From: a virus
Taxonomy: Duplodnaviria; Caudoviricetes
Strand: one strand, 5' to 3'
Length of the DNA stretch: 64,000 nt
Virus record (IMG/VR): IMGVR_UViG_3300042483_000388
In this document: positions 34,732-37,457 of the stretch, one piece after another
Position numbering within the stretch: the first letter of the stretch is position 1
Layout of the letters: every line of letters begins with the position of its first letter
The notes under the pieces: generated by a model
Databases searched by the model: none
What the model was told of the DNA's origin: nothing
Seen by the model: the letters and a program-made list of their open reading frames with translations, nothing else
Program-made: the position numbers and the translations under genes

Positions 34732-35634
34732 ATGAACGCTGAAAATTATTACGAAATTTTGGGAGTCCCCGAAACGGCAACACAAGACGAATTAAAAAAG
34801 GCGTATAGAAAGTTAGCAAAAGAAAATCACCCAGATGTTGGTGGTAATGAGGACAAATTTAAAAAGATATCAAGCGCTTATGACATATTGGGTGATGAAC
34901 AAAAAAGACAACAATATGATCAACAAAGAAAAAATCCATTTGGTGATATGTTCTCAATGTTTAACCAACAAAGACCAAACCAACAAAGACAAGCTCATAC
35001 AACCACAATTTCAGTAAACATTGGGGTTTTGGATTCTTACAATGCGGATAAGAAAAATTTAACATATAAGAGACAAATTCCGTGTGATCCTTGTAGTGGG
35101 ACAGGTGGGGATAAAAAGTTGTGTAATGTTTGTGGTGGATCTGGTAATGTTGTTAGGCAAGTTGGTTCAGGTATGTTTGTACAAGTAATACAGATGGTTT
35201 GTGATAGTTGTCGAGGTACTGGTAAAATTATTATAACACCATGTTTTCTTTGTCAGGGCGCGGGAACTAAGGGGGATATTAAGAATTTAGAGATTAAATT
35301 ACCATATGGGATAGATAATGGTCAATTTGTTAGACTACAAGGAATGGGTGACTATAGAAATGGGGTATATGGTGATTTAATTGTTAGAATAAATGTTGAA
35401 CCACAAAATGGATTTGATAAAATTGATAACCATTTAATTTATAATGCTTTTTTAAATATGGAAGATCTTAAAAATGGTAATCTAATGGTTCCCCATCCAG
35501 ATGGCGATTTAAACTTAAAATTACCAAAAACGGTGGATACTTCAAGACCGTTAAGGGTTAAATCTAAAGGGTTTAAATTAGAAACCGTTGGAGACTTAAT
35601 TGTAAATCAGTTTGTTAAATTCCAAAGGGATTAA
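34732..35634 (+). CDS. dnaJ: DnaJ co-chaperone (J domain, Zn finger, C-terminal domain)
   Basis: YYEILGV...HPD motif and four CxxCxGxG repeats. Confidence 0.95.
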
Positions 35635-35801: not shown

Positions 35802-36293
35802 TTAAATTATATAGATAATAATATCACCTTTAATTATTTTAGTAAAGTTATTAACTTCAAAATCTTCTCTGATAACCGTTTCACCTGATTTGGTAATTAT
35901 AATTGTTTTATCGTTTTGGTTACTTGGTAAATTCTTTGGGTGACCAATTGATGTATTAATAGTTAAAAATAAATCACTATTTTTAGATTGAGTAACCCAA
36001 ATATGGTAATCAACACCTATCATATAGTCTTTAATTAAAATAGAATGGTCTTTATCTTGTATTTTACTTGGAGAATTAAGTATGTCTATGGATACCTCAA
36101 CAATGATGTCTAGAATGTCAACAATTGACTCCTTTATATCCTCAATTGATTGTCTACCGTATAATGAATTACTTATTGCCATATTTGAATGGTCATTATA
36201 AAAAATGTCAACGTTTAGACCATCAACTTCATATCTATCCAATAGTTGTTTTCCCTCAAGGATGATATTTTTTATTGTATTAAGTAATTTCAT
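35802..36293 (-). CDS. Hypothetical protein with an N-terminal (I/L)xE peptide (MKLLNTIKNIILEG)
   Basis: TATTTAT 6 nt upstream of this ATG; the longer track start lies inside a terminator hairpin. Confidence 0.65.
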   Translation of the reverse strand: MKLLNTIKNIILEGKQLLDRYEVDGLNVDIFYNDHSNMAISNSLYGRQSIEDIKESIVDILDIIVEVSIDILNSPSKIQDKDHSILIKDYMIGVDYHIWVTQSKNSDLFLTINTSIGHPKNLPSNQNDKTIIITKSGETVIREDFEVNNFTKIIKGDIIIYII

Positions 36294-36306
36294 ATTACTA
36301 TAAATA

Positions 36307-36334
36307 TAAAACCCCTCCATAAATGAAGGGGTTT
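36307..36334 (-). terminator. Intrinsic terminator closing the small RNA unit
   Basis: AAACCCCT-tcatttatg-GAGGGGTTTT on the minus strand. Confidence 0.7.
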
Positions 36335-36350
36335 CGCAAGATTATTTCAT

Positions 36351-36517
36351 TTATTCAATTGAGGTTATCAACCCGTGTCGACACACCCGACACCCGGCGT
36401 TCAGATTGTTAGTTAGGAGTACTGACATCCTGCGTTGACACACCCAACACCAGGCGTTCAGATTGTTAGTTAGGAGTACTGACATCCTTGTTTTCAGTAG
36501 TGTTACCCACATCAACA
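36351..36517 (-). ncRNA. Candidate structured small RNA with two identical 36-nt pseudoknot-like modules, each followed by a covarying hairpin
   Basis: TATCTTTG promoter at 36521-36528 (-), terminator at 36307-36334, 57-nt period, compensatory base changes between copies, GC-rich relative to the genome. Confidence 0.6.
36380..36488. repeat. Two ~52-bp direct repeats with a 57-bp period
   Basis: 36380-36431 and 36437-36488, differing at two positions. Confidence 0.95.
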
Positions 36518-36617
36518 ATACAAAGATAAGGAAGTTTTTGGTTCTACCAAAACATTTGTAATCTTTTTTTAAAAAACTTCCATTGACTGATTACCATAAA
36601 TATCTTATATTTTATCT

Positions 36618-37457
36618 ATGTTAAGTTATATAGGTGGTAAGAGTAAGATTGGAAAGTGGATAGTCCCTTTCTATGATAAAGATATGGAAACATACGTTGA
36701 AACATTTGGTGGTATGTTTTGGTGTTTCTTTAATATGGACTTAAAACAGTTCCCCAACCTAAAGAAAGTTGTTTACAACGACTTTAATCCGCTAAATTAT
36801 AACCTATTTAAGTGTATTCAAAACCCAACGGAGTTATTGATGGCGATCAACTCAATTGATTGTCAAAAATTTGGGGAAGAAGTAACACCTACAATCTATA
36901 AAGAACAATTTATAAGGTTTCAGGCTGAAATATTTGCCGAAAATTTCAGGGTAGAACCTGGTAATTATGATGTTGCGGCTAAATATGCGTATGTTTTAAC
37001 ACAAGTATTCTCAGGATCTAAACCTGAGACAAGTTCTTTTATTGACCTTAAAGGTAAGTACAAATCTAAATACTTAACATTCCGAGATAAGTTAATGAAA
37101 CCTGATTGGGTTGAACATTTCTTAAGAATAAGTGATGTGGAAAATATGGACTTTGCTGAAGTTATTGAAAAGTATGATTCACCTAACACTTATTTTTATG
37201 TGGATCCTCCATACTGGAAAACAGAAAACTATTACTCCAACCATGACTTTGATCGTAAAGACCACGAAAGACTTTCAAAATCTTTAACAAGTATGGAAGG
37301 TAAATTCAGTTTATCGTATTATGATTTTGAATTGTTACACGAATGGTTTCCTGAAGACCAATACATTTGGTCTAAAAAGAAATTTGCTAAGGCTGCTGCA
37401 GCTAAAAAGGGTAAGACTCAAACTATGGGTGAGGAATTATTAATAATGAATTATTAA
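36618..37457 (+). CDS. Dam/D12-class N6-adenine DNA methyltransferase
   Basis: SYIGGKSK, YVETFGG, VYNDFN, FYVDPPY, ELLIMNY. Confidence 0.9.
   Translation: MLSYIGGKSKIGKWIVPFYDKDMETYVETFGGMFWCFFNMDLKQFPNLKKVVYNDFNPLNYNLFKCIQNPTELLMAINSIDCQKFGEEVTPTIYKEQFIRFQAEIFAENFRVEPGNYDVAAKYAYVLTQVFSGSKPETSSFIDLKGKYKSKYLTFRDKLMKPDWVEHFLRISDVENMDFAEVIEKYDSPNTYFYVDPPYWKTENYYSNHDFDRKDHERLSKSLTSMEGKFSLSYYDFELLHEWFPEDQYIWSKKKFAKAAAAKKGKTQTMGEELLIMNY

Follow-up and report, generated by a model that had tools for sequence, protein, structure and literature searches.

A small RNA of large freshwater phages, composed of pseudoknotted units and commonly neighboured by a small protein gene

Layout of the locus

The locus lies within a 64,000-nucleotide stretch of phage DNA (hereafter the window), and all of its features are read on the minus strand. 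It opens with a Bacteroidota sigma-A-type promoter (36521–36551) that matches the full consensus and is kept in nearly all homologues; the –33 TTTG (36551–36548) is separated by a 19-nt spacer from the –7 box TATCTTTG (36528–36521), and the full consensus is matched 12 times in the window against 4.7 expected. There follow a 5' hairpin (36489–36517), which in the MFE fold has an outer stem UGUU/AACA and an inner stem GUGG/CUAC, two tandem repeat units, and an intrinsic terminator of 12 pairs plus a U tract (36308–36335) that is found at the same place in most homologues and varies in sequence. This strong host-type promoter and the terminator would give a transcript of ~205 nt, with a GC content of 42–48% compared with ~30% in the surroundings. 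The original prediction had placed a promoter and a terminator on this strand and both are indeed present, the promoter as a consensus match. The data support a self-contained non-coding transcription unit of pseudoknotted modules.

The tandem units are each 57 nt long (36432–36488 and 36375–36431) and 89% identical. Both contain an exact 36-mer that occurs twice in the window (0 expected) and nowhere else in it, in agreement with the two exact sequence copies originally described. The first of the two (module 1) is a short unit occupying 36432–36488, scoring 56 bits over model positions 1–57. The second (module 2) is the core of a full unit (36338–36431, 111 bits) in which positions 36375–36431 are followed by a P3 hairpin (36362–36374), a P4 mini-hairpin (36349–36359) and the conserved tail GAAAUAAUC (36340–36348).

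A gene starting ~15 nt past the terminator (35802–36293, minus strand) encodes a 163-aa protein whose phage family is uncharacterised, and is linked to the RNA as described below. The motif TATATTTAT (36300–36308) is positioned 6 nt ahead of its ATG. There are 13 copies of this motif in the window against 4.5 expected, and eight of them precede the ATG of a long ORF by 4–21 nt; in one case the motif lies directly past a terminator. Examples of other sites are 4732, 16794, 46773, 51910, 52798, 54184 and 56651. The motif has the appearance of a promoter or gene-start signal specific to the phage, resembling the host –7 box without the –33, and a sigma-like protein of the phage itself (25395–26195) may take part in reading it. 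Because TATATTTAT precedes the 163-aa gene and is enriched before ATGs, this gene probably has its own start signal.

Two plus-strand genes flank the module, a full-length phage DnaJ with J domain, zinc-finger and C-terminal domain (34732–35631) and a Dam-type N6-adenine methyltransferase (36618–37454). The gene order methylase, RNA, 163-aa gene, ~50-aa gene and DnaJ is preserved in the homologous loci L052, L054 and L057.

Unit architecture and covariation

Comparison with homologues shows the module originally described to be shorter than the basic unit, a full unit being ~92–97 nt. Its 5' part consists of P1 (AGGA/UCCU, with GUCAG in the loop), a 10-nt A-rich joint and CUGAM-CGCY; then come two free nucleotides and the 6-bp P2 hairpin with loop GGUGNRN, followed by P3, a CA dinucleotide, P4 (a 3–4-bp mini-hairpin) and the tail. 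P3 is GGGU/ACCU, and its loop (GAU, UAAU or GAAA) is not fixed in length. Module 1 of the window accordingly contains P1, pseudoknot 1 (PK1, formed by the loop GUCAG with CUGA), the 10-nt A-rich joint, CGCC, and a P2 of GUGUUG/CAACGC with loop GGUGUGU, and in module 2 the P2 stem is GUGUCG/CGACAC. A second pseudoknot (PK2), which the original prediction did not claim, is formed by CGCC (CGCY among homologues) with GGUG of the P2 loop. Since both pseudoknots use one continuous strand, this single 9-nt strand bridges the P1 and P2 loops; as judged from sequence comparison, CUGAMCGCY pairs with both hairpin loops, making each unit a compact double pseudoknot. Pairing of the loop GGUGUGU with ACACACC of 16S rRNA was dismissed, only GGUG being conserved.

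Homologues contain one, two or three units, a single full unit being the commonest arrangement, and repeats of both the short (57 nt) and long (about 92–97 nt) types are found. The window has one short unit, running from P1 to P2, followed by a full unit; L044 has two short units and one full unit, and L052 and L054 have two full units each.

We counted covariation in 38 distinct homologous units, aligned to nested helices only. In this set 94% of cells are paired, compared with 29–48% when the partners are slid by 1–3 columns. P2 has compensatory changes at 6/6 pairs with 98% of cells paired, so that the covariation predicted for the hairpin following each copy (GUGUUG/CAACGC and GUGUCG/CGACAC) extends across the homologues. 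Compensatory changes are present at three pairs of P4, and the closing pair of P3 alternates between G-U, G-C and A-U. PK2 was left out of the model, yet 100% of its cells are paired; the one-sided variants CAUU, CAUC and CACU all keep the pairing, and compensatory variants are seen in L058 (CGUU/AACG), L059 (U-A) and L075 (CGCU/GGCG). PK1 is invariant in the main clade and has four different complementary versions overall, the distant copies having GUUAGG/CCUAAC, GUUGAG/CUCAAC, GUUGGG/CCCAAC, and UUGAC with a G-U pair. P1 is GGGA/UCCC in L016 and L057. The AGGA/TCCT stem and its loop pseudoknot with CTGA, which are near-invariant in close relatives, are both upheld by these complementary variants of distant relatives. 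The original prediction had named an absence of covariation among homologues as evidence against it; P2, P4, the 5' hairpin, PK1 and PK2 are all supported. The unpaired nucleotides of the RNA are near-invariant, and the L2 loop residues beside the pseudoknot vary in length and sequence.

The 5' hairpin usually stands ahead of the units, and among homologues it differs widely in sequence and length while its pairing is retained: the window has UGUU/AACA with an inner stem, L025 has UGUGAU/AUCACA, L015 has UGUUGAU/AUCAACA, and L029, L046 and L057 have UGUGUU/AACACA. A closing stem had been proposed between the 5' TTGA..GGT and the 3' ACCTCAA, and this had to be abandoned: the 5' half changes wholly among homologues and ACCUCAA is constant, and the two halves lie instead in separate hairpins, the 5' segment in the covarying one and the 3' segment in its own. 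An additional 5' domain of ~75 nt is present in the minus-strand RNAs of L059 (852–925), L072, L073 and L075, which are convergent with the protein gene; it contains a GNRA-capped hairpin that covaries (CGUC-GAAA-GAUG, CAUU-GAAA-GAUG and CGUC-GUAA-GACG).

Distribution of the RNA and its protein neighbour

We collected ~35 distinct versions of the RNA, all of them from contigs that are viral or metagenomic. With a 17-mer taken from the module we retrieved nine IMG/VR loci, each a true homologue (9/9), and a degenerate module pattern retrieved 18 loci of viral and 27 of metagenome origin, most of them from lakes and on contigs of up to 311 kb; a pattern match in L048 was set aside as a chance match. 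More distant RNA copies were reached through relatives of the neighbouring protein. The same module pattern gave only two chance matches in one representative genome each of 185,579 prokaryote species, and covariance model R1 matched none of 151 sampled Bacteroidota genomes, so the RNA family is known only from phage-like contigs. A host antitoxin repeat resembling the module, of the kind that the original prediction proposed for comparison, was found in neither set. GenBank phage records gave no match to the RNA, and the region matches huge-phage records weakly.

No Rfam 15 family matched in the window at either gathering or permissive thresholds, which agrees with the earlier suggestion of an undescribed class of non-coding RNA; the best sub-threshold match, the rnk leader, was driven only by the terminator. 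A scan of nine related loci against Rfam gave a single match, a tRNA elsewhere on L032, and there is no tRNA or tmRNA at the window locus. We conclude that large freshwater phages carry a genuine small structured RNA that had not been catalogued before, and the covariance model obtained here can seed a new RNA family. Readings of it as a preQ1-I, pistol, xrRNA-like or CRISPR-repeat (Racr-like) RNA received no support from any tool, and the variable L2 loop and the absent Rfam match argue against the first two.

Small parts of the region are present in three metatranscriptomes. One 87-nt contig corresponds exactly to 36396–36482 and a second covers 36297–36393 at 100% identity, whereas pieces of flanking genes in those runs are only ~89% identical to the window; these are assembled contigs with a depth of ~2, and report presence in RNA libraries rather than transcript ends or abundance. 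A contig from marine metatranscriptome run X20 joins 36327–36357 to 35848–35904 with 63 unrelated letters between, and its sequence indicates a relative whose 163-aa gene has for the most part been replaced.

The RNA was originally described as standing alone, but the conserved 163-aa gene just past its terminator travels with it in most loci. Among 26 distinct first-round loci, ~20 have the gene directly 3' of the RNA, at amino-acid identities as low as 35–40%, and a 304-kb phage record rated complete has exactly one RNA copy and one protein gene, which are adjacent. Among eight further family members with usable surrounding DNA, five (P0039, P0041, P0043, P0050 and P0057) carry the RNA upstream, and the neighbourhood of P0050 differs from the Dam methylase/DnaJ synteny of the window. 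In a distant subfamily (P0074, P0075, P0078 and P0081) the two are convergent at 4/4 loci (L059, L072, L073 and L075), with the RNA on the opposite strand immediately downstream of the gene, and these convergent RNAs have their own promoter, the extra 5' domain and their own terminator. Adjacency is kept across three neighbourhoods and two orientations, and in the main clade it could in part be inherited synteny. RNA and gene decay together in one metatranscriptome contig and in L024, where the RNA is cut at its 5' end and only a 17-aa gene remnant is left. Each is also found alone: RNA copies lacking the 163-aa gene belong to the L018 group, L029, L032 (twice), L042 and L046 (first copy), and L060 has a family gene without the RNA. 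Conservation is much stronger in the RNA core than in the protein, with a near-invariant 36-mer compared with 30–40% amino-acid identity.

In L032 (6150–6660, minus strand), L029 and L033 the RNA unit begins directly past the stop codon of an upstream ORF without a terminator, and is followed by ~230 nt more of conserved non-coding sequence with hairpin potential. The second copy in L032 (5463–5556) is 1 kb away and has its own promoter-like box and terminator.

The protein family is small, comprising 49 clusters at 50% identity, all unnamed. The 163-aa protein has no match in Pfam, PHROG or PADLOC, a profile search against PDB sequences returned nothing relevant, and the protein was not found in 401 sampled Bacteroidota genomes; longer 'family' matches proved to be spurious and of low complexity. 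In a wide alignment R47, T114 and S115 are invariant and E13, D89, D95 and H118 near-invariant, and the family has the motif INTSIxHPK. Two AlphaFold (AF2) models agree, with pLDDT values of 78 and 81. Foldseek found nothing in the PDB and nothing decisive among Swiss-Prot models or ESM Atlas features, and the shape matches in the Atlas and AFDB are other uncharacterised phage proteins. With an exhaustive structural aligner, about 16 of the best 26 rows are RelE, ParE, HigB, YafQ, YoeB, BrnT, CdiA-CT, a colicin-type RNase and T4 RegB, all matching residues 26–124 with Z scores of 3.4–5.0, the tool's reliability level being Z 8; a Foldseek search of BFVD gave a T4-type 'site-specific RNA endonuclease', a RegB homologue, with a probability of 0.93 and an E value of 0.03. 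The modelled core has the beta-alpha-alpha-beta-beta-beta order of the BECR fold shared by the RelE superfamily and RegB, a small early RNase of phage T4; it differs from BECR-fold RNases in the lack of sequence similarity, in the low Z scores and in its extra N- and C-terminal strands. We take the predicted RNase-like core of RelE/RegB type as a weak lead. ToxN, CptN and TenpN are not among the structural matches listed, and the protein shows neither sequence nor fold match to them.

Interpretation of the RNA and its neighbour

Type III toxin–antitoxin loci are organised as a promoter, tandem pseudoknotted repeats, a terminator and a small protein gene (PMC5086642); they occur in viruses, and their repeats can be imperfect (PMC12283969). 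The window locus resembles ToxIN, CptIN and TenpIN in its promoter, tandem units, Rho-independent terminator and ~160-aa protein gene, and in units of varying number that are predicted to fold as H-type pseudoknots (PK1 and PK2) with A-rich single strands. It differs from them in that the units are 57–97 nt rather than about 34–45 nt long, with two pseudoknots plus accessory hairpins in each, and in that many loci have a single unit, although the window has two in tandem; the module is moreover found only on phage contigs. Membership of the type III group fails because the protein, which has no similarity to ToxN/AbiQ, CptN or TenpN and a weak likeness to another RNase fold (RelE/RegB), is not a relative of their toxins, and because the operon plan is not kept, L059, L072, L073 and L075 being convergent and the gene having its own start motif. 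Pseudo-ToxI of phage PhiTE is likewise a phage-encoded repeated pseudoknot RNA; the phage reportedly escapes ToxIN by RNA mimicry, pseudo-ToxI being a near copy of the host antitoxin repeat. Unlike pseudo-ToxI, the module described here has no counterpart in the prokaryote genomes scanned, and the RNA has a conserved candidate protein partner of its own.

The explanation that we tentatively put forward, and that could well prove wrong, is that the locus is a two-part phage RNA–protein module that is similar to type III toxin–antitoxin systems without belonging to them, and whose RNA is stable and probably abundant. By analogy, each RNA unit would bind one copy of the 163-aa protein, which from its model may be a small RNA-binding protein of nuclease-like type, its core resembling RelE/RegB; following type III toxin–antitoxin logic, the RNA might restrain the protein, or the protein might cut the RNA into unit-length pieces that stay bound. 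Host polymerase would make the RNA early, and the protein would be made from the phage-type start signal or by terminator read-through, so that the RNA would be in excess. In favour of such a pair, RNA and gene remain neighbours through rearrangements, including the convergent layout, and they decay together; the covarying structure, the modular units, the RNases among the structural matches and the type III-like plan of the window locus also speak for it. Against it stand the low Z scores of the fold resemblance, the lack of a match to ToxN, CptN or TenpN, the orphan RNA copies and the RNA-less L060; the case is further weakened because conservation of the RNA core greatly exceeds that of the protein, a pattern that a conserved partner from outside the locus would explain no less well.

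It is possible, as the original prediction proposed, that the RNA is a decoy for some host RNA-binding protein. An early, abundant, trans-acting RNA would then soak up a defence nuclease or a global regulator of the host, and the neighbouring protein would be incidental. Several observations are consistent with this: a consensus host promoter and a terminator belong to the RNA itself, unit number varies from one to three as in sponge RNAs, unpaired nucleotides are near-invariant while the neighbouring protein diverges, copies without the protein gene occur, sometimes two per contig, and pieces with 100% identity are present in two metatranscriptomes. However, no host RNA with the motif that it might mimic was found in the 185,579 species or the 151 Bacteroidota genomes, and the adjacency of RNA and protein in three neighbourhoods and two orientations is difficult to explain if the protein is irrelevant; we regard a decoy with an incidental neighbour as unlikely, but as one to be taken seriously. 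The narrower form in the original prediction, an early phage mimic of a ToxI-class host antitoxin, is unsupported, there being no host copy in these sets, units of 57–97 nt with extra hairpins, and many homologues with a single unit.

The order of promoter, structured leader, terminator and gene, with ~15 nt from terminator to ATG, would also suit a cis-regulatory leader (riboswitch or attenuator), in which the units would be metabolite or ion aptamers controlling read-through into the 163-aa gene. As with tandem riboswitch aptamers of the glycine and preQ1-I-like types, an invariant core is combined with covarying stems in both single and tandem versions, and the succession of P1, loop, A-rich tail and pseudoknot resembles preQ1-I. 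Unlike these aptamers, the RNA matches no model in Rfam 15, is not always upstream of the gene, and has no expression platform that we could find: no conserved alternative pairing of unit and terminator (antiterminator) was seen by eye, terminator sequences vary freely, and the L2 loop residues flanking the pseudoknot are variable in length and sequence. The gene is preceded by a recurrent start motif of its own, TATATTTAT, RNA and gene are convergent in the four distant-subfamily loci, and the second copy in L032 and first copy in L046 each have their own terminator and no gene behind. A purely cis-acting leader is disfavoured because of this convergent layout and these orphan copies with their own terminators, and we think it improbable. 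We give very little credence to the proposition that the conserved element is a small protein or a DNA-level repeat such as an iteron or protein-binding site. An internal ORF (36351–36518) would encode 55 aa, and the repeat length of 57 nt is divisible by 3, but the frame is broken in 8/18 homologues by 1-nt loop indels and the start would be a TTG within the promoter. We therefore rejected the ORF as a conserved protein, and the broken frames also speak against the 53-aa ORF (36351–36512) that the original prediction had named as a possible conserved product. Substitutions in the stems are compensatory and include many G-U pairs; as these would be A-C mismatches in the complementary strand, it is the minus-strand transcript that is under constraint.

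Returning to the RNA–protein pair, a more specific form of it seems doubtful to us, namely that the locus represents a new toxin–antitoxin-like class of lytic jumbo phages in which, by analogy, an RNA of 1–3 double-pseudoknot units neutralises, or is processed by, a RelE/RegB-fold endoribonuclease. If true, it would provide the first RNA partner for the RelE/RegB toxin superfamily, and the phage might use the module for timed destruction of host or rival-phage RNA; we know of no RelE-type toxin with an RNA partner. Even in its general form, the pair would mean that lytic jumbo phages are using such modules themselves, whereas an RNA targeting a host factor would be a new candidate anti-defence RNA of Bacteroidota phages. 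To our knowledge very few structured phage RNAs have known partners, and a small RNA with strong covariation, two pseudoknots on one bridging strand and an obvious candidate partner is directly testable.

A further feature of the RNA promoter is an inverted repeat, TTTTGG-N5-CCAAAA (36536–36552), overlapping its –33 element. The other TTTG..TATCTTTG promoters of the window lack this repeat, which is conserved in most homologues of the RNA locus and is possibly an operator.
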